Sequence record: NC_048196.1
Origin: Escherichia phage vB_EcoM_Schickermooser
Length of the DNA: 64,000 nucleotides
Strand: one strand, 5' to 3'
In this document: piece after piece, positions 5,098 to 32,481 of the stretch
Numbering within the stretch: position 1 is the first letter of the stretch
Layout: each line of letters starts with the position of its first letter
Translations under genes and position numbers: made by a program
Notes under the pieces: generated by a model
Database searches by the model: none
The model's input: the letters and a program-made list of their open reading frames with translations, nothing else
What the model was told of the DNA's origin: nothing

Positions 5098-5131
5098 ACT
5101 CATTGGAATTAAGTTTCTAACAGGAGCATAA

Positions 5132-6505: not shown

Positions 6506-6506
6506 T

Positions 6507-6535
6507 ACGGCGGGGGTTAAGCCCCCGTTATCAAA
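6507..6535 (+). terminator. hairpin between sheath and tube genes (weak terminator/attenuator)
   Basis: CGGGGG-TTAA-CCCCCG stem-loop; only a short T tract after it. Confidence 0.45.
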
Positions 6536-6551
6536 ATAAAGAGGATCTATA

Positions 6552-7031
6552 ATGGATAAAATGCTTACTGGCGTAATGGCCTACGACCCATCTCAAGTTA
6601 TCCTTTCATTAGGTGGTTGGGAACCGTGGGGTTTTGCGGCTGATACTAAAATCGTTATTGCTAAATCTAACGATATTATCAACCCTTATTCAGGGACTGA
6701 TGGGGACGTTTCATTAGCTTTGAGTCGTAACCGTTTGGGAACACTCACAATGTCTTTGCAACGCACATCTCCAGCTAACGAAGTACTTGCAACATATGCA
6801 CAAACAATGTATTCTACTCGTCAAGTAGCATTCAGTGTTTACTTGGAAGACCCACGTGGCTATTACATTAGCACGATTGGATGGATTCAAAGTCAGCCTG
6901 AAGATACTATTGGCGAAATGATTACAGAGAACCAATGGGTTATTGGTCTTAAAGATGCAAGCCTTCTGCGTAATGAAGTTGGTGTAGGTTTGAGCACCCT
7001 TAACTCAATCTCTGCTCTGACAATTCAATAA
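6552..7031 (+). CDS. tail tube protein
   Basis: 159 aa ORF directly after sheath gene. Confidence 0.6.
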   Translation: MDKMLTGVMAYDPSQVILSLGGWEPWGFAADTKIVIAKSNDIINPYSGTDGDVSLALSRNRLGTLTMSLQRTSPANEVLATYAQTMYSTRQVAFSVYLEDPRGYYISTIGWIQSQPEDTIGEMITENQWVIGLKDASLLRNEVGVGLSTLNSISALTIQ

Positions 7032-7036
7032 TAAAT

Positions 7037-7060
7037 AAAGGGCAGAAATGCCCTTTTTTA
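7037..7060 (+). terminator. rho-independent terminator after tube gene
   Basis: AAAGGGCA-GAAA-TGCCCTTT followed by TTTTTTA. Confidence 0.7.
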
Positions 7061-7077
7061 TCATTAGAGAGGAAAAT

Positions 7078-7560
7078 ATGTCACAAGAACAAGATAACAC
7101 AATTCAAAAATATGCTCGACCAGAAGAAGTAGTTGAGATTCCGTTAGATGGAAACAGATCTGTTACTTTCCGTATTATGAAGTGGAGTCCATCTAAAGTG
7201 TTTGACAGGATTCCAGAATTAGGTAGTGTTCTGGTTGTTCCTATGACTATGTATAGCACAGCAACAATGTCCGCAGACGAAGACCTTGAGTCACGTATTG
7301 CTATGGCACTGATCCAACTTTTTGCAGGTTTGGAAGAAAAGAATTTAACTGTCTTTTTGCGTAAAATTTTAGATGAGGTTTATACCCAAGACGGTTATAA
7401 CGTTGCAGAAAATTTTGATGAATTATTTATGGCTCACCCAGAACTAGTGTTAGATCTTACTGCTAAAGTTCTGGAGGTAAACTACGGCCCTTTTTTCAAA
7501 CGAGGTTTCGGAAAACTGTTCACACAGCTTCAGGCGATGACGAGTTTAGCAGCAAATTAA
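7078..7560 (+). CDS. tail assembly chaperone (G-like)
   Basis: ATG at 7078 with GAGAGG RBS (track start 7048 is inside terminator); located between tube and tape measure; contains slippery heptamer. Confidence 0.55.
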   Translation: MSQEQDNTIQKYARPEEVVEIPLDGNRSVTFRIMKWSPSKVFDRIPELGSVLVVPMTMYSTATMSADEDLESRIAMALIQLFAGLEEKNLTVFLRKILDEVYTQDGYNVAENFDELFMAHPELVLDLTAKVLEVNYGPFFKRGFGKLFTQLQAMTSLAAN

Positions 7561-7826
7561 CACCTGCGATTGAACATGCTATCGACACAGCAACGAAAAC
7601 CCTTACTTTGAAGTGGTATGAGGTTATTCTTTGCAAAGTCGTTAAAGATACCTCGGAAACACTGAAAACATTGGATAACTACGGTGTAGATTATCTTTTA
7701 AAACTATATGAGTATTTAACATACGAAGAGTATGTTGAAGCCATGTATGTTAAAGACACTTCAATAAAGAGAAAACATCAAAACCAGACAAATAAAATGT
7801 CAGATTTGTTTAAGAAACTTGTTTAA
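7467..7826 (+). CDS. -1 frame extension of tail assembly chaperone (GT-like fusion C-terminus)
   Basis: ORF in the -1 frame relative to 7078..7560, overlapping its 3' end and ending just before the tape measure gene; no independent ATG/RBS (track start 7608 is TTG). Confidence 0.5.
   Translation, partial: SSGGKLRPFFQTRFRKTVHTASGDDEFSSKLTPAIEHAIDTATKTLTLKWYEVILCKVVKDTSETLKTLDNYGVDYLLKLYEYLTYEEYVEAMYVKDTSIKRKHQNQTNKMSDLFKKLV
7491..7497 (+). other. candidate -1 programmed ribosomal frameshift site (TTTTTTC)
   Basis: X XXY YYZ heptamer T TTT TTC in the zero frame of the chaperone ORF; the -1 frame is open from 7467 to 7826. Confidence 0.5.
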
Positions 7827-7846
7827 TCCAACACGAGGAACATACT

Positions 7847-9835
7847 TTGTTAGAAATTAACGCCTCCAGAATTAGTAACGTGGTTACGTTTAAGGTGGAC
7901 AAGAACAGTCTCAAGGAAGCAAAAGATGCCGTGTTGAGTGTTCAGAAGTTTGCAAATAAAATGCAACCCACTATGAACATGACCAAGTTTAGACAACAAA
8001 TGAAAGAGATTGAGCGTGAACTTAAGAAAGCTCAAACTCAAAGTCAAAAACCTATGCGAGCACCTACTCCCGCCGGAGCGGGTGCTCCTGTAGGAGGATC
8101 TGGTAGACCTAGAACTCCTAAAACCCCGCAAGGAAGAGAAGAAGAAAAAGCTCGTAAAGCTGCTGAACGCGAAGCTAAAGCAGCAGCACGTAGGGAAGAT
8201 TTAGGTAATCTTCGTTTGCAGAACTTTAACTACAGAGCAAGAGCATTTAGTAAAGCCAGTCCTGGCGCTATGCAAGAAGCTAGGGACGTTATGGGTAAAG
8301 CTGTAGAGCAATACAAAAAGGGTGAAATAACTCTTCAACGTATGAACCAAGCTCTTGCTCACCAGTTGGATGCTTTACGCAGATCTCATCGTGAAAAGAA
8401 TGCTGAAATAGAAGACGAGGTTCGCGGTCGTCGCCGTATTCGTAGAGAGCTAGAAGCAGAAGCTAAAATGCGTATACGTATGCGAAATCGTGAACTTAGA
8501 GATATAGAACGCAACCGTAAGCGTGAATTAGCTCAACAGAAACGTGATCGTGATCGTAGATACGGACAATTAAAAGAAGGTGCAGCAGGTCTTAATCCAC
8601 GCATGATTGCATCCTCTTTGATAGGTGCTGGGCTGTTTGCAGGTGGTTCTGTAGTTGGTAACACGTTGATGAATACTAACGAAAGAATTAAACTTGTAAG
8701 TCGTGGTGCTGAAAACGTTCAGACAAACGCCAACGCTATTTTGGCAATGACAGCTTGGGGTGAACAGAACGGTGTAGACTCTGCAAATATTATTAAATCA
8801 ATAGATAATATTAAAGACGTTCGTGAACGTCTTGGTAATACCGTTTTAGCTGCAAAGTGGAATGAGAAAGAAGGGAAGTGGAAAGGCGGTGATAATGGCA
8901 TAACTGACATTATGAACTTGTTTGGATGGAATCCAGAACAGCTTAAACCTTTACAGAACGATCCTTTAGCTTTTATTCAGGCTACTGTTAATGAAGGTGA
9001 GCGTCGAGGTATGAACTCTGCTCAAATCGGGCGACTTCTTGAAAACCTTGGTGATGACCTTATGCACTACCAACGTATGTTTAGTAAAAACGGCGAAGGG
9101 TATAATGAAGTATTGAAAATGCTTCAAAGAACAGGTGCAACATTAACTCAAGAACAAATAGATGCTTCTAAAGAGTTTACTCGTTTTGCTGCAACAGTTC
9201 AGCTTGTAGGTCAAGGTATGCAGAACCACTTCTTAGAGGGTTTTGTGAAAGCCTTACCTAAAGATGATTCTTGGTTGGATAACGTTAAAGTGCTAGATCA
9301 GTTTGCCAAAGATTTAGGTGAAGAACTCGGTAAGACAACAGTTCAATTAGGAGGTTTTGCTAAAGAATTAGGAGATGGCTTCGGATCTTTTACCAATTGG
9401 CTTAAAGAAACATTCCCAGATACATTCGGAGACAACACAGATCCTAATAAATCTATGGCACAAAAAGCATACGAGGCAACGCAAAGTGGAGACAGCAATC
9501 CTGTAGCAGATTGGTTGTACAATTTAACAGGTATTGATACACAAGACATTGGTCGTATGTGGAGAGGAGAACAAACAAGGACACGTGCTTTTGGATTTGG
9601 TAATCCTCTTGAAGATTTACGTGAATCAGCCTATACACCTAACGTAAGTTTGGCTCGTAATCAACCTGTTGTTGAGAATACGGTAGCAATACCAAGTGAT
9701 CTTATCAAAGTTACGATCAGCCCTTCTTCAGAGTTTGGAAATATTCTTGATGCAAGAATTCAAAATAGCGGAAATAGCATTTTCCAACGTTTGTCTCTTT
9801 CAACTCTAAGTGGACAATCTAACACTGGTGGTTAA
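7847..9835 (+). CDS. tail tape measure protein
   Basis: 662 aa, long charged helical regions (R/E/K-rich), position after chaperone pair; TTG start with GAGGAA RBS. Confidence 0.75.
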   Translation: MLEINASRISNVVTFKVDKNSLKEAKDAVLSVQKFANKMQPTMNMTKFRQQMKEIERELKKAQTQSQKPMRAPTPAGAGAPVGGSGRPRTPKTPQGREEEKARKAAEREAKAAARREDLGNLRLQNFNYRARAFSKASPGAMQEARDVMGKAVEQYKKGEITLQRMNQALAHQLDALRRSHREKNAEIEDEVRGRRRIRRELEAEAKMRIRMRNRELRDIERNRKRELAQQKRDRDRRYGQLKEGAAGLNPRMIASSLIGAGLFAGGSVVGNTLMNTNERIKLVSRGAENVQTNANAILAMTAWGEQNGVDSANIIKSIDNIKDVRERLGNTVLAAKWNEKEGKWKGGDNGITDIMNLFGWNPEQLKPLQNDPLAFIQATVNEGERRGMNSAQIGRLLENLGDDLMHYQRMFSKNGEGYNEVLKMLQRTGATLTQEQIDASKEFTRFAATVQLVGQGMQNHFLEGFVKALPKDDSWLDNVKVLDQFAKDLGEELGKTTVQLGGFAKELGDGFGSFTNWLKETFPDTFGDNTDPNKSMAQKAYEATQSGDSNPVADWLYNLTGIDTQDIGRMWRGEQTRTRAFGFGNPLEDLRESAYTPNVSLARNQPVVENTVAIPSDLIKVTISPSSEFGNILDARIQNSGNSIFQRLSLSTLSGQSNTGG

Positions 9836-9842
9836 TAAAATA

Positions 9843-9866
9843 CCTCGCTTCGGCGGGGTTTTTTCG
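9843..9866 (+). terminator. rho-independent terminator after tape measure gene
   Basis: CCTCGC-TTCG-GCGGGG hairpin followed by TTTTTTCGTTT. Confidence 0.7.
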
Positions 9867-9872
9867 TTTCCC

Positions 9873-9902
9873 TTGACACGAAGTTTCTATATGTGTTACA
9901 AT
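9873..9902 (+). promoter_or_regulatory. sigma70-type promoter with extended -10 (TTGACA-N18-TGtTACAAT)
   Basis: Perfect -35 TTGACA at 9873-9878, TGn at 9894-9896, -10 TACAAT at 9897-9902. Confidence 0.6.
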
Positions 9903-9912
9903 AATCAATATG

Positions 9913-9935
9913 GGAAGATCTTGCATCTTCCTTTT
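9913..9935 (+). promoter_or_regulatory. 5' leader stem-loop with T tract (attenuator/antitermination target candidate)
   Basis: Perfect 7-bp inverted repeat GGAAGAT-cttgc-ATCTTCC followed by TTTT, ~10-30 nt downstream of predicted TSS and upstream of ATG 9962. Confidence 0.4.
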
Positions 9936-9961
9936 GGCATTATCATTACTACGAGGTTATC

Positions 9962-10663
9962 ATGGCAGCAATGACTCCACAACAGTCGGTGAGAGCCGTC
10001 TATAAGGCAGAACAGGAAATCAACTCTACCGAGAATAAAAATACCTCGGCATCTACTGTAAAGGGTGATAATGGTTTCTGCATTTTAGCAAGTGTTTATA
10101 ATAGTTCAAGTGATCAATACATTCAAAACTTTAAAGCAATTACTTTCGATTCGGTCCCTGAAGTAGGTGTAACTCGTGAGGCAGATGTTACAAGTTTTCC
10201 AGTAGAATCAGGATCGGATGTAAGTGACCACGTTCAAATAAAAAACAACAGATTTAAACTTTCAGGTATAATTACCGAAACACCAATTCGGCTTATGCGA
10301 GATCAATTATACAGTGCAGGTGTAAATGGGGCAAGGATTTCTCAAGCAATAGAATATCTAGATCAAATATTTGAGTCAAGACAACCAATAGTTCTTTTGA
10401 CAGAACACAGGACTTTTGAAAATGTTATTCTGAAAGGGTACTCTTATGATTATAAATCTGAATTTGCTATGCAATTTGATTTAGAGTTCGAACAAATTCG
10501 TCTAGTCTCTAAGGCCACTACTAATGCTATTGCTGTAAAAACAGCACCAAATAAGTCAACTGGTGGTGATGTGAAAGGTCAAGTCGCTTCTAATGGTCCT
10601 AAGTCAGATATTACAGTAAGAACTGCTGAAGCTACTAATACCCCAACAAACAACGGAGGTTAA
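9962..10663 (+). CDS. hypothetical tail/baseplate protein
   Basis: 233 aa, first gene after tape measure. Confidence 0.4.
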   Translation: MAAMTPQQSVRAVYKAEQEINSTENKNTSASTVKGDNGFCILASVYNSSSDQYIQNFKAITFDSVPEVGVTREADVTSFPVESGSDVSDHVQIKNNRFKLSGIITETPIRLMRDQLYSAGVNGARISQAIEYLDQIFESRQPIVLLTEHRTFENVILKGYSYDYKSEFAMQFDLEFEQIRLVSKATTNAIAVKTAPNKSTGGDVKGQVASNGPKSDITVRTAEATNTPTNNGG

Positions 10664-10665
10664 TA

Positions 10666-11079
10666 GTGACAACTTATTCTAAAACAACAAGGTCTACAAG
10701 TAATACTGGCTACAGTGCAGTTTATCTGGAGGACCATTCTACTTATTTTGCATGGTATCTGAAAACTGAAGAGTACCCTGATCAAACATATACAGTTACA
10801 TTGGATGGAGTTGATTATGACATTCGTTTAAGGTGGAACACTAGGGACGAGTCTTGGCAATGTCAGATAGGATTATCTGGAGATGATCCAAGTATAAGTT
10901 TCAAAGTTACAAATGGTTTAGATCTTCTTAAACCTTATAAATATCTTGAAAGTGTGCCAGATGGTCAATTGTATATAGTAGATACAGTTAAGATTAATGG
11001 TCGTCCTGGGTATACAACTACAGGTCGAGATAAACGTTTTGTATTGGTTTATATTGATAACAAACCTAATCAGGCGTAA
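10666..11079 (+). CDS. hypothetical tail/baseplate protein
   Basis: 137 aa ORF in baseplate block. Confidence 0.4.
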   Translation: MTTYSKTTRSTSNTGYSAVYLEDHSTYFAWYLKTEEYPDQTYTVTLDGVDYDIRLRWNTRDESWQCQIGLSGDDPSISFKVTNGLDLLKPYKYLESVPDGQLYIVDTVKINGRPGYTTTGRDKRFVLVYIDNKPNQA

Positions 11080-11088
11080 GGAGATAAT

Positions 11089-12099
11089 ATGGCAGAAAGA
11101 GAGTATACAAAAGCTCCCGCCCCTAATTTAAACAGGGCATACAAATTATTAATTGGTTCTGCCACAAACACAATACAGAAGAGAACTAAGAACTCGGCAT
11201 TTAAATCTACAGTAGATTTGGATACCAAGTTAGGGACAACAGAAAAATCCTCTTCTAATTTGTATTTGTTGCAAGACCATCAAATAACCTTCAGTATTAA
11301 GAAAGATAATAACAAAGATCCTAACCAAGCAGAGATTGTAGTTTATAACCTTTCGGATGATACTGTTAACTATATAAACCGTGGTATCCGAAATAACTTG
11401 GCTGTTGCTTTAGCGGTAGGATACGAAGGTGAAGAGTTGGTTATGGTCTTCAAAGGAACTATCCAGTGGGTTAGTGATACTTTTGACTCGGTAGACAGGA
11501 AAACCACTTTACACTGTTTGGATGGCGGTATTAACATTGCAGAAGCAAGAACAAGCCGCAGTTATCCAAAAGGAACTAAAATCAAACGTGTTGTGACAGA
11601 TTTGGTAAAGGATTTAGGAACTACAGAAGGTAATATACACGTAGATAATGATCAAACCTTATCTTCAGCAACAGCTATGTGTGGAAACACTTCACATTAC
11701 CTAGAACATATTTGTAAAAGTATTGATCACAATGTGTCGATACAAGATGGATCTGTTTATGTCACTCCTCGTTCACAAATGTCTAGTGCACGTAGCGCCT
11801 ACATTAGCCCTGAAACTGGTCTGATAGGAAGTCCAGAACCATTCCACAACGATATAAAACCTACTAAAAAAGTTACCAAGTCCTCTAAGAAGGCAAAGAA
11901 ACCTACAGATGGTGTTAAATTCAAATGCCAAATGAATGGTGCAATACTACCAGAAAAAACAATCTGGTTAAAAAGCCGAGATTATGATGGTCCATTTAAA
12001 GTTGTTTCTGTTTCTCACAATGGTGATAAAGAGGGTAAAGAGTGGGTTACTGAAGTGGAGTGTGTATCCGTGTCTGAAATAATGACTAAGGAGAAATAA
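11089..12099 (+). CDS. baseplate hub candidate (gpD/gp27-like by position)
   Basis: 336 aa ORF immediately upstream of spike gene. Confidence 0.4.
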   Translation: MAEREYTKAPAPNLNRAYKLLIGSATNTIQKRTKNSAFKSTVDLDTKLGTTEKSSSNLYLLQDHQITFSIKKDNNKDPNQAEIVVYNLSDDTVNYINRGIRNNLAVALAVGYEGEELVMVFKGTIQWVSDTFDSVDRKTTLHCLDGGINIAEARTSRSYPKGTKIKRVVTDLVKDLGTTEGNIHVDNDQTLSSATAMCGNTSHYLEHICKSIDHNVSIQDGSVYVTPRSQMSSARSAYISPETGLIGSPEPFHNDIKPTKKVTKSSKKAKKPTDGVKFKCQMNGAILPEKTIWLKSRDYDGPFKVVSVSHNGDKEGKEWVTEVECVSVSEIMTKEK

Positions 12100-12833
12100 T
12101 GGATGCATTGAATTTTGTCACAGCAATGCGCGGATTAATGACAGAACAATTAGCAGAAGTCCATACAGCCCTGCCAGTCCGTGTGACTGGCGTTAATTAT
12201 GGTGCTAAAACTGTCACTTTAGAATCTATTGTTAAAAACACACGATCTAGTGAAGATGAAATAGATTATCCTACTTTTGAAGATGTTCCTTTTATGGTTA
12301 ATGGGGGTGGGACAGGAAGAATCTCATTCCCTATTAAAGCTGGCGATTTAGGAACTGTTATATTTTCTGAAAGAGATCCTTCTAATGCACTGCAAACTAG
12401 TGGAGAAACCTCTTCATCATCCACTTTTATGCAGCCTTGTGGATTATACCCTATTTGTTTTATTCCCAAAATAGCTACAGGAACAGATTCAACAGAAGCC
12501 GTAGATTCTGAAAAGGTAGTTATTTCTAATAACAAAAACACGTACGCTTCTTTCGACCCTACAGGTAATATTTCAATATGGAATAGTCAAGGGATGAAAA
12601 TAGATATTACTACCTCCGGTATTACTATTACAGATGGCACAGGGACTTTGGATCTAAAAGGTGGTAATTTAACTTTCAAAGGCGGCGTGGCAGATATCAA
12701 TGGTCTTAAAATAGATCAGAACGGTTTGATGACAGATGGTAATGGCATCGGATTCCATACTCACACGCACACGGTTCGTAACATTCAGAGCGGTAACTCA
12801 AGTGCCGAGTCCTTAAAACCAACAGGAGCCTAA
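12099..12833 (+). CDS. baseplate central spike protein (gpV/gp5-like)
   Basis: N-terminal OB-fold-like region (PVRVTGVNYGAKTVTLESIV), Gly-rich beta region, C-terminal His-rich apex (GFHTHTHTV) as in metal-binding spike tips. Confidence 0.6.
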   Translation: MDALNFVTAMRGLMTEQLAEVHTALPVRVTGVNYGAKTVTLESIVKNTRSSEDEIDYPTFEDVPFMVNGGGTGRISFPIKAGDLGTVIFSERDPSNALQTSGETSSSSTFMQPCGLYPICFIPKIATGTDSTEAVDSEKVVISNNKNTYASFDPTGNISIWNSQGMKIDITTSGITITDGTGTLDLKGGNLTFKGGVADINGLKIDQNGLMTDGNGIGFHTHTHTVRNIQSGNSSAESLKPTGA

Positions 12834-12834
12834 C

Positions 12835-13461
12835 ATGGGAATCCCTTTTGACTTAAAACTTGGGCCAAACAACGACCTCATCATGGATGATGGGGATTTG
12901 GTCCTCACTACAACCAGAACAGAAATTGCAGCACAAACTCTTGGGATAACTCTGAACACGTATCGTGGGGAGTGGTTTTTAAATACTAACTTCGGTGTTC
13001 CTTACTTACAAGAGATTATTGGTGTTGCTAGAAAGAAAGATATTGTAGACAGAATATTTTTAGCAGAGATTGCCAAAAACGTTTACATAGATACAATAAA
13101 CAGTTATAAATCTGCTTATGATATGGATCAACGTTATTACTCAATGACAGTTATGGTCACAGTTGGAGCAGATACAGTAACATCTATATTCAATACTCAA
13201 CCTTCTGAAGAGTTTATTTACCCTGAAGCTGGTGAAGACAATGCAGCGATCACTTGTGAAGCTTACAGTATTGTTGAGAATTCGAATAGACTTTATCGCT
13301 TTATCAACTTTGTTGGTTTGCCACGTGATACCTACTCTACTTGGTGGAATGAATGGTCTACAGAGTCAGCAGTGGAAAGAATCATGGTTAACGAAAAAGG
13401 TGATGCATTAGCTACAAACAATAATTTCGGTATAACAGCTATGACAGGAGTAGAAGAGTAA
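12835..13461 (+). CDS. baseplate wedge protein (gp25/W-like region)
   Basis: Pattern DDGDLVL...EIAAQTLGITLNTYRGEWFLNTNFGVPY resembles gp25/W-family N-terminal signature; position after spike. Confidence 0.45.
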   Translation: MGIPFDLKLGPNNDLIMDDGDLVLTTTRTEIAAQTLGITLNTYRGEWFLNTNFGVPYLQEIIGVARKKDIVDRIFLAEIAKNVYIDTINSYKSAYDMDQRYYSMTVMVTVGADTVTSIFNTQPSEEFIYPEAGEDNAAITCEAYSIVENSNRLYRFINFVGLPRDTYSTWWNEWSTESAVERIMVNEKGDALATNNNFGITAMTGVEE

Positions 13462-13934
13462 TGGCAGATTTAACTACGATCAAAGTTTCTGATCTTACAC
13501 AAACAACCTCTGTGTCTGATACAGATTTCTTTGTAACAGATCAGGCTGGAATAACAAAGAAAACTTCTTTGAAAGTGCTGTTGAGTGGTGCAGGGGTAAC
13601 TAGAAACCGTCTGAATGCACGGGGAACAGTAACTAGCACCCTGGCATTAGATATTAGTTTGGCAGAATATTTTTCAGCAACTTTATCTTCTGCAACGTGC
13701 ACAATTAGTTTTACTAATATTCCAGTAGCAACAAATGCAGTTTTAAACTTTACTTTAGCTTTGCGTCAAGGAAGTGGTGCAAATAAAGTCGTATGGCCTT
13801 CTTCTGTAAAATGGAGTTTTGGTCGTTCCCCAGTTTTGAGTTATCGTCAAGGTGCAACAGACACTTTTGAGTTTATCAGTTATGATAATGGAGCAACTTG
13901 GACAGGTAGCTTAGTTTTAGCAGGAGTTATTTAA
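13461..13934 (+). CDS. hypothetical baseplate/tail protein
   Basis: 157 aa ORF. Confidence 0.4.
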   Translation: MADLTTIKVSDLTQTTSVSDTDFFVTDQAGITKKTSLKVLLSGAGVTRNRLNARGTVTSTLALDISLAEYFSATLSSATCTISFTNIPVATNAVLNFTLALRQGSGANKVVWPSSVKWSFGRSPVLSYRQGATDTFEFISYDNGATWTGSLVLAGVI

Positions 13935-16810
13935 TGTCAAGAGTTAAGCACAATATTGACAACACGTTTCAGTTGATTGAAGGGTTGGTTCAGTTTTTGG
14001 AAAGAAATACTGGGCTTACCATAGATCCTACGGTTCAGCATTACATTATCAACCCACAAAACGTATTGGCGAACAACAGACACTTTATTAACTGGACAGC
14101 GCAGGAAGGGCAACCAAACGGTGACGCTACTACCGAAGGTCAATCTGTGCTTATCACTGGTTTTGCTTATGCATATTTGGCTACAGGGGATAAAAAATAT
14201 CTTGAATCTGCCGAGAAGTATTGGCAAGCCTATATAGATCACTTCTTCGGGGGCCAACCTATTCCTGATCCTCCGGCTAAGTATCGTCCCAACTGGATCA
14301 TCAATGGTAAAGAACCACGTTTAGCACATTACCCTCTCACAGATGATGGGTATCCTACGCACGGTGGGTTCAAAGGTAGCATGATGACTTGGATTAACGG
14401 AAGGACTGTTATTCCTAAAGGTGCACCGCATTGGGGAGAATACTTAGATAAAGCTTGGTTTGCTTTCAATGGTAATCTTGGTTGGAACTCCGTTAACGCA
14501 ACAGTTTATGCAACTAACCCAGATGGTTCAACTAACTGGAAAGAATATGGAGATCAGTGGGACGTTGAATGGATTATAGATCGTCTAGGACGTAAAGTTG
14601 ATTGGGATGGTAACATTTTATCTACAGGGCACAGCTTCGCAGAATATGGAACAGTGCAACTTAAAAATGCTTCTGTGAACGGTGATTATAAATTCAACTA
14701 CGCTACATGCAACCCTGTAGAACACGGTGGATATCTGCTTAAGCGTAATGAGATGTGGCATAACCGTCCTGTAAACGTTCCGGTAGAGTTAGGCTATCAA
14801 GATAATGCTTCCGATGCTGAAACGTGGTGGTGTGATGCAAACTACTTGATGTATCAGATCACAGGAGAGAGAAAATACTGGCTTTGCTGGCAATCTTCTT
14901 TATTGTTGTGTCAAGACTACTCAAACATCGATATGTTTGATAAATTCTTCCGTAGATCTACGACAGCAATAATTCCTTTTACAGATGGTATCTCGTATGA
15001 TTACTCATACCCATCTACAGCAATACCTAAATATTCTCGTGACGAATTAGGATATACAGTAATTCGCCAAGATGTTTCAGCACAAACAACTCTAGAACAA
15101 CAGGCAGTTTGGTTCAGAGTGGATCAGAATTCAAAACTGCGTATTGAGTTTCAAGGTGTAGATGATGCAGGGGAAGGTGTTCTTTTCCGTCCAGAGTTAG
15201 AATTAAGCAAGACTAAGAGTGAAACAGACACAGTGACATATCGTTGTGGCTTACCTCTTGGTGCAGCTAATATGACTAAGATGGATATACCTTTATCTAG
15301 TTTTATGCGCACCGAACCTCCTGGAGGTGGTGTATATATTATTGCTGAACCTAGAATCATTGTTGACTGGGGAAGCAATACTGTGATACAATATAAATAT
15401 GCAACTGGTATTGCTGGGACAAATAGTGATCAGATAGTTTCTGCTAATATGGATTCAGATGGTGGTTTTACTATTGGATTTTGGTTAACACCAACTAAAA
15501 CAGCCAATTTAAAATCTATTACCTATCGTTCATACGCAGATGATTTTAACATCACTATTACGGATTCCGCAGGTTGGAGATGGTGGGCCATGTTAGAAAA
15601 AACAAATTCTGCATGGGTTACTAAAGTTTTAAGTCCTGCTGATTTCAAATTAAGTACTTGGCAACCTAATCACAATGACACAGAGACAAAACCTTCGTCA
15701 ATAAACCTGACTGCTGTTGATCAGATCAACATTGCATTGGATTCTGAACCTGCAAATGGCTTGACAGGGGCAATCGACTTTTATTGCGTTAACGATATCC
15801 CATCTTTGTATTCTTCAGCCGCTGGTGATGATTACACAATGTATTTCAGGGTTACAGTTTCATCTGAAAATCCTTATACAGCAAAACTTGGAGATTGTAC
15901 AATACTGGACTACAAACTTGACAGTTTGAATTATACTCCAGGAATCATTCCATTTTCCAATATTAGTGATCCTAACACAGCATTATATGACGGTTGGCGT
16001 GGTATTCCTTACCCAGGTTATCAATACCCATCCTTATATTGTTTTAAAGGGAGAGATATTGACTGGGTTCGTATGAACAACAGTATAGACTTTTTATATG
16101 ATTCACAAATGTGGTTTTATAATAAGTTTGCCCCTGTGATGCCTGGGCCAATGGCACAAGCTTATGTTTGGGATCGTTGGGATGCTCATAAATACGGAAA
16201 CAAGAATGAGTTCACAATGTATCATTGGAACGATAAAGCTTGGGATGGTTATGAAGCACGAGCATTCTTCTGTGCATGTCATACAGTATACGAACTGAAA
16301 CAACGAGGAGCAGAAGTTCCTGCAAAACTTTTAACAGTTTGTAAAAACTGGATCAACTATCTGAAATGGTTCCAAGATAACAACGAAGGAAGAACACCAA
16401 CAATATTTTATCCCAATGGAGAAGTGGCTGCGCCTGTAGATGACTTTACAAGTCACATGTCTGCGCTCTTTATGGCGGGATGTGCTATAATGGGGATGGC
16501 TGGATATGATTCAGAAATTCCTAACATTAGAATAGTAGCAGACCGCTGTTTTGAACTTATTCAGGAAAACTATATTGTTCTTGGTCCTAATCACGTCATG
16601 AATGGTTGTTGGAGTGCCGCTCCTAGACCAGACAGTGATAACGGAGTCTTCTTTGGCTTCCACGCTGGAGAGTTGTTACGTGGTTTTGGGTTGTATGCTT
16701 TATACAAAAAACTTAATCCCCAAAATGCATTACCTGTTTTGGATTCGAGCAATATTCCTGCACTTACTGTTTTGACAATGGCAAACATTAGTGTGGACGT
16801 TACCGAGTAA
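13934..16810 (+). CDS. large virion protein (958 aa); possible carbohydrate-active domain
   Basis: Long ORF in baseplate block; W/Y-rich segments; enzymatic domain not verified. Confidence 0.35.
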   Translation: MSRVKHNIDNTFQLIEGLVQFLERNTGLTIDPTVQHYIINPQNVLANNRHFINWTAQEGQPNGDATTEGQSVLITGFAYAYLATGDKKYLESAEKYWQAYIDHFFGGQPIPDPPAKYRPNWIINGKEPRLAHYPLTDDGYPTHGGFKGSMMTWINGRTVIPKGAPHWGEYLDKAWFAFNGNLGWNSVNATVYATNPDGSTNWKEYGDQWDVEWIIDRLGRKVDWDGNILSTGHSFAEYGTVQLKNASVNGDYKFNYATCNPVEHGGYLLKRNEMWHNRPVNVPVELGYQDNASDAETWWCDANYLMYQITGERKYWLCWQSSLLLCQDYSNIDMFDKFFRRSTTAIIPFTDGISYDYSYPSTAIPKYSRDELGYTVIRQDVSAQTTLEQQAVWFRVDQNSKLRIEFQGVDDAGEGVLFRPELELSKTKSETDTVTYRCGLPLGAANMTKMDIPLSSFMRTEPPGGGVYIIAEPRIIVDWGSNTVIQYKYATGIAGTNSDQIVSANMDSDGGFTIGFWLTPTKTANLKSITYRSYADDFNITITDSAGWRWWAMLEKTNSAWVTKVLSPADFKLSTWQPNHNDTETKPSSINLTAVDQINIALDSEPANGLTGAIDFYCVNDIPSLYSSAAGDDYTMYFRVTVSSENPYTAKLGDCTILDYKLDSLNYTPGIIPFSNISDPNTALYDGWRGIPYPGYQYPSLYCFKGRDIDWVRMNNSIDFLYDSQMWFYNKFAPVMPGPMAQAYVWDRWDAHKYGNKNEFTMYHWNDKAWDGYEARAFFCACHTVYELKQRGAEVPAKLLTVCKNWINYLKWFQDNNEGRTPTIFYPNGEVAAPVDDFTSHMSALFMAGCAIMGMAGYDSEIPNIRIVADRCFELIQENYIVLGPNHVMNGCWSAAPRPDSDNGVFFGFHAGELLRGFGLYALYKKLNPQNALPVLDSSNIPALTVLTMANISVDVTE

Positions 16811-16818
16811 GGGGTAAA

Positions 16819-18882
16819 ATGAAACAAGCTATATTTACTGTCACGCGAGACAAGAGAGTAAATGCGAGTTCATTTAACTACACGACTGTTGACGGAACAG
16901 CAGTCGCTGGTAGAGATTATATAGCAAAATCGGGAACACTTGTGTTCCCTGATGATGCTGATTCTGCTACCATTGTGGTTGAAGTATTTGAACGACCAAA
17001 GAACTCAATAGATCTTAACTTCTCCCTCCAAGTTTCAGGGATTAGTCAAAATAACATGATGGTTGAAACGACCATCAATTGTATTATAACTACTATCCAA
17101 GAAAACACTACTCCAATAACTTGGACTACAAAAGACGTTAAAATGTTCTCTCCTATGTATTGGACAATAGACTCTCAAGCAACGGAAAGTTGTTCTATTG
17201 TATCTCATGGAGACTCTTTTACTGCAAGATTTGTAAACAGAACAGCAGCAGGTTTGGCAGGGGTTATCTGGAGCACAGTTGACAAATATGATCACAAAGG
17301 AGTTGGGTATTTACCCCACACAGATTTAAGTTCAGAGAAACTTTGGTTTAAAATGGAAATTAGTCAAAACATGCCAGGTTTTAAAGAAGAACCTTTGGTG
17401 CCGACTTTGACTGTAACTCTCCTGGATAAAAGTGTTCATTATGTCAGTTTAGGATTCTACGCTTCAGATATTTCAGAAGATGGTAAAACAGCCACAATCA
17501 AGTTAGATTTTGGTAATATCTTTTCTGGCCCTAATAATGATATTCCTTTGGATATGAGTGCTGTAGATAATATTTTCTTCTCTTTGATTACAGCAAGGTA
17601 TGAAGAAATAGAAGAGATTGTACCTATTGCCAGTCAAGAGGCTTGGTTTACTTTCACTCTTCTTGAACCTACTTCTGGTTACAGTATGATGAAAGTCAGC
17701 AACCTTGTCCAGCCTGAACATGATATTCGCATGTGCACATCTTATGATGATATGTATAACCTGACTCCAGAGAGAGTTATTTATAATACGTATGCACTAG
17801 GTTATCGTGGAATGATTAACCATTACAACGGAATGTCTCACTATTATGAGTTCTCATGGAACGGAACATCTTGGGCTTTAAATAGATCTGTTTTCCTGAA
17901 TCCGGCTACAGAAGCTTGGCTTAACAGTTTCCATTCTATAGCTAATGAAAATGGCTACACAATAATGAACTCTTTGAGTTTTGAGTTGATGAGCACAGTT
18001 TGTCCTGTAGAATGGGTTCAACATGATTGGAACGATGCTCTTGCAGCAACAGGTTATGAGCCGCCTAGTTATGTGTTATCTCCAACAATTGATGAAGGTA
18101 TGGAATATTTGCAAAATGTTATTAACAAAATAGCATCTATTTCTCAAGCTAACAATATTCCAGTCGTCATTCAAATTGGTGAACCTTGGTGGTGGTATAA
18201 TACAGCAAGTAAAATGCCTTGTATATATGATTACACTACCAAACTAGCATTCAATACAGAAACAGGCTTATTTGCACAAGATGCAGGAACAATAGATAAT
18301 TATAAAACAGGAACACCGTTTGACGAATACTATGCATTTTTGTCTCGTAAACTAGGATTAAGAGTTACAAAGTTTGCAACAGACACTAGAGCAACTTATC
18401 CAGGAGCTAAAGTAACATTGCTTCCGTTCTTACCGTCAATTATTGGCAACGGTTTGATGGAGAAAGTTAACTTTCCGTCTGATTACTACATTCCTGAAGC
18501 TTTTGATTTTTACTGTTCAGAGTGTTACGACTGGCTTCTGGAAGGTAAAATGATGAAAGCATTTGATGCAATTACCATACCACATGAAAAATTAGGTTTT
18601 GAATATTCTGATATTCACTATCTTTCAGGTTTTGTTCCAGATGCTACTCTTGCACCTTTGTATGGCTTCGATCCTGAATCAAACTACCGCACGTATCTTT
18701 GGAAAATGATTATAGGTAATATAGTGTTGAACGCCAATAAGTTCAATGGACTTACACAATATATATGGGCCTATCCTCAAATAATGCACGATTCCATCAC
18801 GGTAGTTAATTCTCAATCCCAAGTTTTCTATATGGGTAACGTGCCTTTGAACGTTTATTTACAGGATACAGTATATGCCTAA
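16819..18882 (+). CDS. large virion protein with N-terminal Calx-beta-like domain
   Basis: N-terminus DGTAVAGRDYIAKSGTLVFPDDADSATIVVEVFER matches Calx-beta-like pattern. Confidence 0.4.
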   Translation: MKQAIFTVTRDKRVNASSFNYTTVDGTAVAGRDYIAKSGTLVFPDDADSATIVVEVFERPKNSIDLNFSLQVSGISQNNMMVETTINCIITTIQENTTPITWTTKDVKMFSPMYWTIDSQATESCSIVSHGDSFTARFVNRTAAGLAGVIWSTVDKYDHKGVGYLPHTDLSSEKLWFKMEISQNMPGFKEEPLVPTLTVTLLDKSVHYVSLGFYASDISEDGKTATIKLDFGNIFSGPNNDIPLDMSAVDNIFFSLITARYEEIEEIVPIASQEAWFTFTLLEPTSGYSMMKVSNLVQPEHDIRMCTSYDDMYNLTPERVIYNTYALGYRGMINHYNGMSHYYEFSWNGTSWALNRSVFLNPATEAWLNSFHSIANENGYTIMNSLSFELMSTVCPVEWVQHDWNDALAATGYEPPSYVLSPTIDEGMEYLQNVINKIASISQANNIPVVIQIGEPWWWYNTASKMPCIYDYTTKLAFNTETGLFAQDAGTIDNYKTGTPFDEYYAFLSRKLGLRVTKFATDTRATYPGAKVTLLPFLPSIIGNGLMEKVNFPSDYYIPEAFDFYCSECYDWLLEGKMMKAFDAITIPHEKLGFEYSDIHYLSGFVPDATLAPLYGFDPESNYRTYLWKMIIGNIVLNANKFNGLTQYIWAYPQIMHDSITVVNSQSQVFYMGNVPLNVYLQDTVYA

Positions 18883-19135
18883 AGAAAGTGGTTTTAAAAA
18901 ATTTATTCGCGGAATGTTCTGCACTTACCCTGGCAACGGGGTAAGCTCTACAAAAGTCTGGAACGCTGTAGGCATGTCTGTTATGACAGGCATGTTTATC
19001 TTTTTAGGAATAGAAAAAGAAATTCCTGAATGGATGGGTTGGGCTTTTGTTTTCATGATAACTCCTTCTCGCCTCATGAAAAATCTTATTGATTTACGCT
19101 GGGGCAGATCACAATCTACCAAAGAGGATGACTAA
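18875..19135 (+). CDS. small membrane protein
   Basis: 86 aa with one hydrophobic segment (VWNAVGMSVMTGMFIFLGI). Confidence 0.4.
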   Translation: MPKESGFKKFIRGMFCTYPGNGVSSTKVWNAVGMSVMTGMFIFLGIEKEIPEWMGWAFVFMITPSRLMKNLIDLRWGRSQSTKEDD

Positions 19136-21263: not shown

Positions 21264-22325
21264 ATGGCGAAGCCAATATATTATCCTGACTGGGCTACAC
21301 AAACTGTAACGCTCCCAGGAACTTTAAACACAAACAAAATTAGACCTAAAGAAACCATCCGCACAGTTGGTATGGATTATGGTCAAATCATGACTTGCGA
21401 AGAAATGAACTGGATTCTTAATAATATCGGTTTATGGATTCGCTATTTGGTGGATGACTTTCTTCCAACTTTACCTAATACCTACTTGCCTTTAGTGGGA
21501 ACTAAGATTACAATGGCAGGTGATGCTACTGGTGAGGCTACTTGGAACGGTAACAAAGAAGTTACTTTATCTATCCAGGTTCAAGATAACAGTCATAATC
21601 ACTTGTCGGCAAACATTACGGATGCCACTAGTTCAACAGTAACACCAAACGTGTTGGTAAAACGTGATGCGGGTGGTGCTATTTATGGTGGTGATGTTTA
21701 TGTTAACGGTACTTCCACAACAGATCCTGCAACACTGTTCTTCAAAAACTTTGCAGGACAAACGAATGGTGAGATTTCTGCCGAGTATCAAAGCGGAGGT
21801 CAGCTTTACATCTACCGTAGAAATCCTAGCACAGGTAGTGTATCGGCAGGTGTTCGTTTATATGATGCAGGTTATGTTCTAATAGATAATCCAAGATCAA
21901 ACAGTGGACAAGACACTTCTAACGGAAATGCTTTAGTTCGTTTAGATTATCTGAACTCTCGTTTGACTTCCCTTCAGAACACATTGCAGACGAATATTAA
22001 CACTGTTCAAAACAACTTGAATAATGTTAACAACAACCTCTCTTCTCGTATAAACAATGTAGAAAGTAATCATCAAAGTCAGATTACAAATAACTACAAC
22101 TATGCTAACGGAACCTTTGTAAGAGATATTCGTTATACTAGCCAAGGTGTGTATTATCCACCAGGGAACGAGGTTTCTTGGACTTATATCTGTTCTTCTG
22201 GTTATGTTCTTTCTGGTATTATCGTACAGGAAACAGGACGTAGCTCTGCGGATAACATCGGTGGGGTTTACTTCAAACGCCTCCAGCGCAACGTTAACGG
22301 AAACTGGTACGATATTGGAGGCTAA
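21264..22325 (+). CDS. tail fiber protein
   Basis: 353 aa; N/Q/T-rich heptad-like stretch (NTLQTNINTVQNNLNNVNNNLSSRINNVESNH); followed by assembly chaperone. Confidence 0.6.
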   Translation: MAKPIYYPDWATQTVTLPGTLNTNKIRPKETIRTVGMDYGQIMTCEEMNWILNNIGLWIRYLVDDFLPTLPNTYLPLVGTKITMAGDATGEATWNGNKEVTLSIQVQDNSHNHLSANITDATSSTVTPNVLVKRDAGGAIYGGDVYVNGTSTTDPATLFFKNFAGQTNGEISAEYQSGGQLYIYRRNPSTGSVSAGVRLYDAGYVLIDNPRSNSGQDTSNGNALVRLDYLNSRLTSLQNTLQTNINTVQNNLNNVNNNLSSRINNVESNHQSQITNNYNYANGTFVRDIRYTSQGVYYPPGNEVSWTYICSSGYVLSGIIVQETGRSSADNIGGVYFKRLQRNVNGNWYDIGG

Positions 22326-23219: not shown

Positions 23220-26200
23220 ATGGCAACATTCCCAACATATCCAGCAACGTCTCTCGAACAGGGCGTAGACCTGGTTATTTTCTCATCTAACCAACTCCAT
23301 GATGTTATTAATGGAAGTGCTACAGAGAGTATTGAAACAGAATCAGGGTTGATACCAACCCTGAGAAAAGCCCTTGTTGACAACTTTTTCTTTAAAAGCC
23401 CATTGGATTGGGCGCAAGGCACAAACGAAACAGTTTTTAACCAACTACGTTATTTTCAGAATGGGGTATTGAGCGGTTATTATTATGCTCCTAATGCTAC
23501 ATTGGTAAACCCAATCCCTATGCAAGGTACTCCAGTAGGAGATAACAACTGGGTATTGTGGGGATTGAAGACAGAACAATTGGCAACAGAAGTCACACCT
23601 TGGGTATATTCTGGTGCAACGGGTTATGAAACAGTAATTAGTCCTCCTTACATCTTTGATAGTGCTATTGTTACGATCAATGGTGTTATTCAGGTTCTGG
23701 GGGAAGCTTTCCGTATAGAAGATAGTAAGATCATCTTATCTGAACCTTTGGGACACGATCCTGCAACAGGACTGCCAAACAAACTTTTTGCTTATATTGG
23801 CAAAATCGTAGCTTCAGCAGATACAGATCCTAATCTAGAGAACCGTCTTGTTAGTTTAGAAACAAAAACGGAAGAACTAACAGAAAGTATGGATAAAGTC
23901 CCTCTGCAAACTATTGCTCGTAAGTATGGTTTGTTAGATGATGAGGTGGCTTACGCAACAGCAGGTCAATCGTTAACAGGGATTAAAGCTCTATATGATC
24001 CGGTAGCGCAGTCTTCCTACACATTACCTCCTAACATTACAGGCACTTTAACATCCCTGTCTGTTTCTGGAGTAATGACTTATTCTGGAGGATCTGTAGA
24101 CCTTTCTGCACTGGCTGTTGAGCGTGGACAGTTTGTTCATTTGCCTACAAGCTTTGGTAATAATGTAACTCTGACAGCTAAAAATCAGACGATTGGACGT
24201 GGCGCTGGTCGTTATCGTTGGGCTGGAAGTTTACCAAAAAGTATTTTGGCTTCTGATACATTGGAGACGAGCGGAGGATTAGGTCCAAATGCATGGGTTC
24301 TGACTAATACAGAAGGACTGTTAACCCCTCGTGGTGGAACATACAACGATTTATTCGATGTTGTCTACTTGTCCGAATTTGCTAACAATACAACTACCTA
24401 TACCACACCAGAAGCAGCTTTCCAGGCGGCACTGTTAGCAGCAAAAGCTTCGAAAAGCAAGATTCTCGATGCTTACGGTTGCGATATGACTTTCACGACA
24501 AGCTCTTTTGATATTCAAGGTATCACTTTGCGTGGGGGTGTGTTCCGTGGTCAACGCGACTATCGTGTGCAAAATGCTACGGTAGAAGGCACAACTTTCC
24601 GTAACTCTCGTGTTATGTATTGGGGTGGTGCTGTGCGCATGTTCGATTGTTTATGGGATGGTGCTCCTCGCGCAGGTCAAGTTGGTAGCTTGGTATTCCA
24701 AGGCAACCCAATATCAGGTACTTTTGAAATTGATAATTGTACTTTTAAAAACGGGTTATATGGCATTCTTCAACAAGGAACAGGGGAACCAGTAACACGT
24801 GGTGTCTTCCGTAACCTTACCTTCATGGACATGCAAGGTGATGCAATAGAACTGAACGTCATCAATAAACATTATGACGATGGTTGTGTGATTGAGAATA
24901 TTTACCTGTCTAATATCGATGGAACTAATGCTCCTATTCCTCTGTCGAACTGGGGTATCGGTATCGGTGTAGCTGGTAAAGGACCATATGGTTACGGAAT
25001 TCCTGATGATCAATATTGCAAGAATATTACAATTCGTAACGTTTTTGCAAAACGTTGCCGTCAGATTGTCCACGTAGAAGTTGGTCGTAATATTTCTATC
25101 GAAAACATTCATGGCGATCCAGATCAAACCGTATCTGTTGGGACAGGTTTGGCAACTGGCGCAGTTGTAATGTATGGAAGTAAAGATTTTACGATTGACG
25201 GTGTTTATGGAGAGCCTAAAACAGACGGTAGCACACTTGCAAGTAATATCCGTATGATTTATTTGGAGTGGGGAACTAACGCAGTTCTGGACGAAGAGGG
25301 TAATCCGGTAGTTCCGGCACAGGGTAGACCTTCAAACCCATGTTTTAACTATTCTGTTCGTAACATTCACACCAAAACTGGGCGTGTTTTTGCGGGAGTT
25401 TCCGCTGGGCCAGGTTATGAAAACAGAGTTAGCTTTGAAAATATTCGTTGCGCTGCATTGCAGTTGTTCGGTATAGCTTCTTGGCTTTCAATGTCTAACA
25501 TCACCTGTAATATCTTCGATTGTGTTGGTCAACCTGAATCTGGTCCAGGAACATTTTATGATGGATTCTTCCGTAGAGAAAAATCTGTTCTTGAAATGGT
25601 TAACGTAAACTGTTACCCAGATGGCAAGACGATGGTTACTGGTCGTCCACAGTGGAGCCGTTGCCGTTACTCGGATATTCATCGTGTCAACTGTAATGTT
25701 GAAGCTAATATGTATACCAATATCGCAGGTGGTATTGGAGCTATTGTAGGGACAACGGGCAAAGTTTATTACTTAGAGCCTAATCCTAGTCGAAACATTG
25801 ATGGAATGCATTTCCCAACAGGGAAAGAGTTTGACAAAGGTGATATGATAGTCAAAGCGGATAATACGTTCTTCCTTGTAACAACAAGTGGGGCATATAT
25901 TCCAGATATCCCAGCTTTCGGTATTCGAGCTACACAGGCAGGAGATACCTTCCTGACACAGAACTTGACTCCTAACGGGACAGCAACAAATGCTTCTTGG
26001 TTGTATCATTACCCTCTGTCAGCAGGGACACGTATCCGTATTCCTGGTGCTGGCGTAGGTGGAGCAGATTTGGACACAGTTATTACTCGTGCACCTTATC
26101 AAGATAATGATACGTGGACTAACCCAGTTAAAATAGACATTGCAGATCCAATTGTAACGCCTACAAGTGCTGGAGTTAGAATTAAAACCATACCTAATGA

Positions 26201-31076: not shown

Positions 31077-31112
31077 TAAAAAAGGGAACCCGCAAAGGTT
31101 CCCTTTTCTTTT
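31077..31112. terminator. bidirectional rho-independent terminator at convergence of late (+) and early (-) modules
   Basis: GGGAACC-cgcaaa-GGTTCCC hairpin flanked by AAAA upstream and TTTTCTTTT downstream. Confidence 0.7.
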
Positions 31113-31139
31113 ATAAAAACTCTTTATAAATCAATAAGA

Positions 31140-32027: not shown

Positions 32028-32043
32028 TATTATCTCCTCTACA

Positions 32044-32436: not shown

Positions 32437-32481
32437 TGAATGCTATCCTATCATAAAATGTTTAATATTGTCAAGCTTTAA

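Follow-up and report, generated by a model that had tools for sequence, protein, structure and literature searches.

The locus and its genes

The subject of this analysis is a 64,000-nucleotide stretch of DNA from Escherichia phage vB_EcoM_Schickermooser (sequence record NC_048196.1; hereafter 'the window'), whose baseplate region holds two very large neighbouring open reading frames, ORF1 and ORF2 (Table 1). An initial annotation, made from the sequence alone, had likened ORF1 to α/α-toroid enzymes acting on polysaccharides, had noted a Calx-beta-like start in ORF2, and had proposed that both might be virion-associated carbohydrate-active enzymes. Judged by predicted folds and by residues kept in distant relatives, it appears on balance probable that the two proteins constitute a virion-borne module which binds, and probably also cuts, a conserved glycan polymer.

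Both frames were recovered on the plus strand with the boundaries and lengths (958 and 687 amino acids) given initially, each beginning with ATG. They are real genes and not chance open reading frames, since (i) the 4.9-kb stretch that contains them is 99.9% identical to Escherichia phage ESCO13, where the counterparts are annotated (and 97–98% identical to phAPEC8; genus Phapecoctavirus, subfamily Stephanstirmvirinae), (ii) homologues abound in phages, with tblastn matches in 532 phage records for ORF1 and in 330 for ORF2, and (iii) the homologues of phage rV5 are virion components: mass spectrometry of rV5 virions detected gp43, gp42 and gp34, the homologues of a 157-residue adaptor encoded just upstream, of ORF1 and of ORF2, and the entry for gp34 reads 'structural protein (MS evidence)' (PMC3606486). 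The wealth of Trp and Tyr that had first drawn attention is genuine, with 9.5% in ORF1 and 8.4% in ORF2 against 2.0–7.9% in 14 other structural proteins of the window, the two being the highest among those compared. The segments quoted at the time are found in ORF1 from residue 77 (FAYAYLATGDKKYLESAEKYWQAY, 14162-14233) and residue 764 (HWNDKAWDGYEARAFFCACH, 16223-16282), and in ORF2 from residue 454 (GEPWWWYNT, 18178-18204).

The assignment to the baseplate region is supported by gene order. The block runs from the tape measure through a Dit_like tube initiator, a Pam3_gp18-type plug, the hub, a phi92-type spike and a gp25-like wedge protein to the adaptor, ORF1, ORF2, an 86-residue frame, a Baseplate_J wedge, a second wedge, and a short fibre with its chaperone, after which come the large tailspikes and fibres; it is syntenic with gp134–gp150 of phage phi92. 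Adaptor and ORF1 overlap in TAATG, ORF1 and ORF2 are separated by 8 nt, and ORF2 overlaps the 86-residue frame by 8 nt. The latter may perhaps belong to the ORF1/ORF2 module.

Table 1. Features of the ORF1/ORF2 locus, in positions of the window; folds and domains are those of the predicted models or of the profile matches named
Feature	Position	Strand	Remarks
ORF1, 958 aa (phi92 gp141 / rV5 gp42 orthologue)	13934..16810	+	six-hairpin (α/α)6 barrel with β-sandwich insertions
ORF1 toroid segment 1, aa 1-135	13934..14338	+	helices 7-24, 67-84, 87-104 (DSSP of model)
TTEGQS in toroid segment 1, aa 66-71	14129-14146	+	candidate catalytic acid E68
ORF1 β insertion A, aa 136-283	14339..14782	+	invariant density 0.128 per residue; HNRP at aa 276-279
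ORF1 toroid segment 2, aa 284-345	14783..14968	+	helices 293-310, 313-329
ASDAE in toroid segment 2, aa 292-296	14807-14821	+	D294, E296 invariant
ORF1 β-sandwich region, aa 346-689	14969..16000	+	at least one jelly-roll resembling carbohydrate-binding module CBM11
ORF1 toroid segment 3, aa 690-930	16001..16723	+	helices 711-732, 773-790, 797-815, 840-855, 865-878, 908-927
ORF2, 687 aa (phi92 gp142 / rV5 gp34 orthologue)	16819..18882	+	Calx-beta, NCTSP_N β-sandwich, (β/α)8 barrel
ORF2 Calx-beta domain, aa 4-82	16828..17064	+	Pfam PF03160
ORF2 NCTSP_N β-sandwich, aa 107-292	17137..17694	+	Pfam PF23844, E=2.1e-16, 60.1 bits
ORF2 (β/α)8 barrel, aa 299-658	17713..18792	+	TIM-barrel_NCTSP PF23845, E=3.8e-79, 266.7 bits
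ORF2 D310/D311 (SYDDMYNLTPER)	17740-17775	+	conserved, catalytic face
ORF2 GMSHY	17830-17847	+	conserved, catalytic face
ORF2 E389	17977-17994	+	conserved, catalytic face
ORF2 E455 in GEPWWW	18178-18204	+	conserved, catalytic face
ORF2 E568 in SECYDW	18517-18534	+	conserved, catalytic face
Adaptor or mini-fibre protein, 157 aa (phi92 gp140 orthologue)	13461..13934	+	stop overlaps ORF1 start (TAATG)
86-aa ORF (phi92 gp144 orthologue)	18875..19135	+	phrog_1322 'membrane protein', E=2.9e-26; phi92 synteny
Contractile sheath gene	5132-6505		window phage is a myophage
Short fibre	21264-22325		

ORF1: a predicted (α/α)6 barrel with conserved carboxylates

ORF1 falls into phrog_2871 ('tail protein'), a large family conserved to an unusual degree (~44% identity between members from Escherichia, Enterobacter, Pseudomonas and marine-bacterial phages and prophages), and its tblastn matches include Vequintavirinae, Rosemountvirus, Kolesnikvirus, jumbo phages and Vibrio phages. 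A single-sequence phmmer search against PDB sequences returned nothing at E<=1. In the AlphaFold2 model (pLDDT 87.6, pTM 0.84; 54-sequence alignment) eleven long helices, contributed by residues 1-135, 284-345 and 690-930 with β-rich insertions between these segments, assemble into the (α/α)6 barrel characteristic of glycoside hydrolase (GH) family 8, and a Foldseek search with the model retrieved the GH48 enzyme Cel48F and the carbohydrate-binding module CBM11, each with a probability of 1.00. The toroid idea holds at the level of the predicted fold, but not as a significant sequence membership in a CAZy family.

The resemblance extends to two acidic motifs. TTEGQS (E68) resembles TTSEGQS of the E. 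coli GH8 enzyme BcsZ and contains the [ST]-E-G-Q motif with its Glu at the start of helix α2, as in GH8, where we take this Glu, the counterpart of E68, to be the catalytic proton donor. ASDAE (D294, E296) resembles SASDGD of BcsZ and GH8; set beside the GH8 signature, which we assume to read A-[ST]-D-[AG]-D-x(2)-[IM]-A... (PROSITE pattern), it agrees at positions 1-4, has Glu in place of the Asp at the fifth, and diverges in the remainder. E68 is conserved in at least 90% of the family alignment, and E68, Q70, D294 and E296 are kept in the most divergent homologues of six other lineages, unlike several other ORF1 motifs that are lost in rV5; E68 and Q70 thereby stand in all 7 divergent lineages compared. 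Toroid segment 3 adds the invariant residues R748, D750, W770, Y773, R776, W893 and E913. Invariant residues mark the N-terminal ends of alternate helices (2, 4, 7, 9 and 11), a placement which in the model would correspond to the geometry expected of the barrel's catalytic funnel; clustering in space, here and for ORF2, was deduced from position in the secondary structure.

Comparison of the full-length ORF1 profile with BcsZ in hhalign yielded a spurious 15-column match, the β insertions breaking collinearity; with the insertions spliced out, the two proteins align collinearly over ~300 columns and both acidic motifs are superposed. A filing of ORF1 as GH8 was considered and dropped, because this alignment, although collinear, is not significant (see Discussion). 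ORF1 is thus better described as a protein of predicted GH8/GH48-type fold whose acidic centre is plausibly intact than as a demonstrated member of either family. By analogy, the likeness to GH8 and CBM11 points to a β-linked glycan as substrate. Peptidoglycan is unlikely, since a protein at the baseplate periphery would presumably not reach the periplasm.

ORF2: a Calx-beta domain, a β-sandwich and a TIM barrel

The Calx-beta-like start noted for ORF2 is a genuine Calx-beta domain (PF03160, residues 4-82, E=8.6e-11, 42.3 bits, with a Pfam gathering cut-off of 27 bits for this model as for both NCTSP models), and NCX/NCX1 Calx-beta (CBD) chains in the PDB match the same N-terminus at ~1e-4. 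It was found only in the myophage homologues (P0121-P0129), and is missing from the Acinetobacter and N4 homologues and from a fusion of ORF1-like and NCTSP parts (P0106); for rV5 gp34 it was listed as early as 2013 (PMC3606486). The remainder of ORF2 passes both models of the NCTSP module, PF23844 and PF23845, and tblastn places residues 51-190 of gp65 of phage N4 on the NCTSP_N region. Among PDB sequences ORF2 matches the sheath subunits of N4, gp64 (7.6e-30) and gp65 (2.6e-12). The AlphaFold2 model (pLDDT 93.6, pTM 0.87) contains a (β/α)8 barrel similar in fold to GH42, GH14 and the hydrolase domain of PgaB/BpsB, with further likenesses to Cwp19, GH5 mannanases, GH20 and PslG.

Conservation is concentrated where a glycosidase would have its active site. 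A 43-sequence alignment reaching down to 27% identity has 37 invariant positions in the barrel, D310/D311, GMSHY, E389, E455 and E568 among them; 22 of the 37 fall within -2 to +5 of a strand C-terminus, where 6.1 would be expected (p=2.8e-10), and the opposite face of the barrel shows no such enrichment. E455 directly follows β4 (450-454), and its GEPWWW motif is reminiscent of N-E-P in clan GH-A. E568 lies at the end of β6. At the end of β7 (599-602), where clan GH-A has its nucleophile, ORF2 has Tyr601, and the arrangement is therefore not the canonical one of that clan. No Pfam GH family matches ORF2, and hhalign of the barrel against PgaB domains is not significant.

Public records name ORF2 and its homologues inconsistently: 'capsid protein' (RefSeq; ESCO13, excerpt 16886-18949), 'non-contractile tail sheath', 'adaptator protein' and 'baseplate protein with EPS depolymerase activity', and many homologues in Acinetobacter prophages are likewise called 'phage capsid protein'. 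The 'capsid' label is almost certainly wrong. ORF2 homologues also occur in three 'Campylobacter phage' records (MG065689, MG065635, MG065677; host C. jejuni), at the identity levels of E. coli Justusliebigvirus (75%) and Vequintavirus (43%) and in genomes of similar size; these host labels seem doubtful.

Relation to the N4 sheath and the deacetylase label

ORF2 is homologous to solved sheath subunits of N4, in which gp64 and gp65 form the heterodimer of a non-contractile sheath and gp65 is the receptor-binding protein (PMC13434306). D310/D311, GMSHY, E389, E455 and E568 of ORF2 are all kept in N4, distributed over gp65 (D-D...R, GMSHY) and gp64 (E, GEPWWW, E-x-Y-D-W). In N4 (excerpt 8758-14192) residues 374-416 of gp65 correspond to positions 4-46 of PF23845 and residues 109-407 of gp64 to positions 60-347, both parts being collinear with the single chain of ORF2 (17119-18798). 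As far as sequence goes, the two chains of the N4 heterodimer may jointly supply a single barrel; alternatively, a diverged remainder may be present in both subunits. ORF2 itself does not act as a non-contractile sheath around a podophage tube, as the window phage is contractile-tailed and has its own sheath gene; the NCTSP name describes N4 and not the role of ORF2. An N4 gp66 appendage homologue, sought as the supposed 'deacetylase tailspike', was not found in the window, and the literature label refers to gp64.

This label deserves comment. Maffei et al. 2021 reported gp64 homology together with glycosidase and 'deacetylase' domains and, relying on Phyre2, named the shared region a 'poly-GlcNAc deacetylase domain'. 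The term probably stems from the titles of PgaB entries and might better read hydrolase-like, because (i) the best PgaB-family match of the ORF2 barrel is a hydrolase-only construct, (ii) ORF2 has no CE4 structure match, no NodB-homology fold and no match to Polysacc_deac_1 or another CE4 Pfam family, and (iii) RefSeq now names PgaB both a deacetylase and a glycoside hydrolase. That the barrel is instead a polysaccharide deacetylase, stripping acetyl groups from the exopolysaccharide NGR in the way that O-antigen is deacetylated by the tail fibre of G7C, strikes us as very improbable.

The adaptor–ORF1–ORF2 cassette

Behind an N-terminal part that is variable, the adaptor (phrog_9017 'tail fiber protein', E=2.8e-68) has a conserved C-terminal domain, ~100 residues long, with an Asp-box (SYDNGATW). 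This domain is kept just upstream of ORF1-like genes in phAPEC8-like phages, BP63, rV5 (gp43), Vibrio phage Vp_R1, an SU10-like contig and ST-3, and the N-terminus of rV5 gp43 matches Tail_spike_N, a P22-tailspike-like particle-binding domain, at 2e-10. No fewer than eight PHROG families of 'tail fibre' or virion proteins share the Asp-box domain; in fibres of 1086 residues (phrog_3904) it stands at the very C-terminus. Public records call the adaptor 'tail fiber protein', 'tail protein I' or 'sialidase domain protein'; homology to gpI of phage P2, as the second name (one record) would have it, was rejected, given that the gpI domain of a fusion protein described below (P0086) cannot be aligned with it while six proteins encoded upstream of ORF1-like genes can.

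Fusions tie the parts together. A metagenomic protein of 1557 residues (P0106), encoded directly 3' of an adaptor gene in an SU10-like podophage, joins an ORF1-like part, NCTSP_N and the barrel in one chain, and in a P2-like prophage a P2 gpI wedge domain is fused to an ORF1-like protein (P0086), right after gpV-gpW-gpJ. The NCTSP module stands alone in Acinetobacter prophages, and in alphaproteobacterial contigs (P0202-P0224) NCTSP_N and the TIM barrel are fused to DUF2460 (PF09343), which we take to comprise the distal tail proteins of gene-transfer-agent-like tails; the module would then occur in a third kind of tail. Adaptor, ORF1 and ORF2 form a portable cassette, whose parts are met as fusions or as neighbouring genes in P2-like, SU10-like, rV5-like and other phages. 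Its mobility between unrelated tail types argues for an action of the conserved parts on the host surface and against their being fitted to one baseplate. In Salmonella phage BP63 (4336-7916) and in Vp_R1 (4122-7865) the adaptor/ORF1-like pair has head-completion or neck genes as neighbours and precedes the tail sheath gene, outside a baseplate block, and the attachment site of the cassette may differ between lineages.

Other observations in the window

Two of the large proteins beyond the short fibre carry a Tail_spike_N anchor, located internally (residues 302-361) rather than N-terminally in a colanidase-like tailspike of 1017 residues (23220-26273) and at the N-terminus, together with a collagen-repeat stretch, in a fibre of 674 residues (26335-28359), which suggests branched spike-to-spike attachment. 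An 891-residue tail protein (28401-31076) pairs an RCC1-like β-propeller, recognised from sub-threshold WD40_RLD/RCC1 Pfam matches at residues 40-331, with a Big_2 Ig-like domain (phrog_11922), an unusual combination in a phage fibre. At ~31000-32500 all large open reading frames switch from the plus to the minus strand and the GC skew changes sign, its cumulative maximum lying near 30-32 kb; here the structural module gives way to one that is transcribed divergently.

Discussion

Taken together, the observations suggest the following picture. Adaptor, ORF1 and ORF2 would be virion proteins encoded by one conserved cassette with coupled translation. At the baseplate periphery they would presumably make up that portion of the lateral fibres which is proximal and conserved in phi92/rV5-type myophages, and would bind, and probably cut, a conserved glycan of the host surface. 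In ORF1, E68 is the candidate proton donor, D294 and E296 may serve as helper carboxylates, and CBM-like β-sandwiches are predicted to occupy the loops of the barrel. In ORF2, the Calx-beta domain might act as a docking or spacer domain, while the β-sandwich and TIM barrel would be equivalent to the gp65 + gp64 module of N4, with a conserved putative pocket around E455 and E568. What this barrel recognises or hydrolyses is most likely NGR or an N-acetylated polymer like it: N4, phi92-like phages and Vequintavirinae all depend on NGR, which Sellner et al. 2021 identified, rather than ECA, as the nfrB/wecB-dependent glycan involved, so that NGR is the leading candidate target by analogy. The particle would thereby advance as far as the outer membrane, and contraction might then be triggered there by the short fibre.

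Several findings weigh against the enzymatic part of this picture, which draws on predicted folds and conserved residues. Neither ORF1 nor ORF2 matches any CAZy family significantly at the level of sequence, and full-length ORF1 has no Pfam match. With its insertions spliced out, ORF1 aligns with BcsZ at E=0.12 as a single sequence and at E=0.037 (probability 1.4%) with a BcsZ profile that is shallow, the relatives found all being at least 60% identical to BcsZ; neither value is significant. The spliced toroids do not match GH8 (PF01270) in Pfam even at E<=10, and yield there only sub-threshold GH76 (4.9e-4) and GH127 matches; GH76 is likewise the only match of the ORF1 profile in the PDB (E=0.061). 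These GH76/GH127 echoes, the sole ones in sequence, map to the hairpin with the motif that the initial annotation had singled out. The ~44% identity of ORF1 across very different hosts is atypical of depolymerases and would also fit a structural role. Finally, the homologous module of N4 has been described as a structural sheath and a binder of a protein receptor (PMC13434306), and the 2026 cryo-EM study of phi92, which models hub, spike, wedge (gp145/gp146) and fibre III (gp147), places neither gp141 nor gp142 and leaves fibres I and II without assignment (PMC13450770).

Some of these points would suit proteins that bind a glycan or its exporter in the manner of lectins and are catalytically inert. 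N4 gp65, which binds NfrA, is an established receptor-binding protein (PMC13434306). In addition, the alignments with BcsZ revealed no GH8-type general base in ORF1, the carboxylate expected at β7 is replaced in ORF2, a CBM11-like domain is present, and binding predicts conserved pockets just as catalysis does. What speaks for catalysis is that paired invariant carboxylates lie at what would be canonical catalytic positions in both folds (E68 with D294/E296 in ORF1; E455 with E568, E389 and D310/D311 in ORF2) and that these pairs are kept in every lineage down to 27–32% identity. Where a GH fold has become inactive and lectin-like, residues of this kind are usually lost. We therefore regard purely lectin-like proteins as unlikely. 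A purely architectural role, with ORF1 and ORF2 serving as an arm or branching hub for variable tailspikes and the enzyme-like folds being relics, would agree with the very high conservation across hosts, with the insertion of the endosialidase gp143 immediately 3' of gp142 in phi92, with the L-shaped fibre I and the fibre II densities that stand on the phi92 wedge gp145 without an assigned protein, with the fusion to the gpI wedge, and with the apparent division of the N4 barrel sequence over two chains, which suggests structural glue. Conservation, however, is concentrated on the catalytic face of ORF2 and the funnel-forming helix N-termini of ORF1 rather than spread over the surfaces, and the cassette moves among tails of myophages and podophages with unrelated attachment sites, so that its conserved part cannot be a docking surface specific to one baseplate. 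Such a role appears distinctly unlikely to us. A glycan-binding and probably glycan-cutting module accommodates the evidence better, and the enzymatic proposal of the initial annotation is in this sense partly supported, namely by folds and conserved residues, and not by significant CAZy membership.

The reading of these proteins as glycan-active lateral fibres exists already, as a prediction, in the literature and in curated annotation: the record of phage Bas60 describes the ORF1 orthologue as a 'lateral tail fiber protein with several glycosidase domains' and the ORF2 orthologue as a 'lateral tail fiber with glycosidase and deacetylase domains'. The inference drawn initially from the sequence is a correct rediscovery, and what it picked out is ordinary in phages of this group. 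Modest additions made here are the specific fold and candidate catalytic residues of ORF1, the case for reading the 'deacetylase' label as hydrolase-like, the adaptor–ORF1–ORF2 cassette with its fusions, and the seeming division of the N4 barrel sequence over gp65 and gp64.

It is then tempting to speculate further that the ORF1 family (phrog_2871, with more than 500 phage records by tblastn and many prophages) constitutes a glycoside-hydrolase family of the GH8/GH48 clan that has yet to be described, carried with its adaptor as a portable cassette on virions of myophages, podophages and possibly other tail types and directed at a chemically invariant surface polymer, and that at the same time the barrel of ORF2 and gp64–gp65 is an NGR hydrolase and not a deacetylase. 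That both hold together is a tentative proposal, and somewhat doubtful. If so, the 'structural' sheath of N4 would be an enzyme, possibly with one barrel built from two polypeptides. Phages like phi92, phAPEC8 and rV5 are prized in phage therapy for their very broad host range, and they depend, as does N4, on the poorly characterised NGR; if ORF1 and ORF2 recognise or cut it, their shared entry route would be explained, and targets for engineering or anti-biofilm enzymes might be gained. The hydrolase-like relabelling and the residues named in ORF1 turn a vague annotation into experiments with point mutants.

Comparison with known systems

Compared with GH8 and clan GH-M enzymes (E. coli BcsZ, C. 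thermocellum CelA, Listeria PssZ, GH48 Cel48F), the barrel of ORF1 is formed by three segments split by ~490 residues of β-sandwich insertions, and ORF1 is a virion protein whereas its GH8 comparators are secreted or periplasmic. The barrel of ORF2 shares 7–13% identity with the C-terminal GH153 domain of PgaB/BpsB, clan GH-A (GH42, GH5 mannanases, GH164), GH14 and Cwp19, and its second invariant Glu is on β6 instead of β7 as in clan GH-A-type glycosidases. In the N4 sheath (PDB 9lc0, 9yf4) gp65 is the major and gp64 the minor subunit. ORF2 unites in one chain, on a contractile-tail baseplate and with an additional Calx-beta domain, the barrel sequence that N4 distributes over two polypeptides, and is devoid of the gp65 domains past residue ~416, including the C-terminal D9-D10 tail-plug binders.

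Classical trimeric tailspikes with a right-handed parallel β-helix, such as the colanidase-like protein of the same locus, are likewise virion-borne and predicted to process glycans. ORF1 and ORF2 exhibit no β-helix in either model and no Beta_helix or Pectate_lyase match in Pfam, and are conserved across hosts instead of varying at the level of the serotype. The closest parallels are provided by the sister phages phi92, rV5 and BASEL PaulScherrer (bas60_0025, bas60_0026), which have the same gene order and do not differ in any essential respect: the Justusliebigvirus orthologues (phi92 gp141/gp142) share 83% identity with ORF1 and 76% with ORF2, those of rV5 35–37% (gp42) and 43% (gp34), and the endosialidase gene that in phi92 directly follows gp142 has no counterpart at that position in the window phage.

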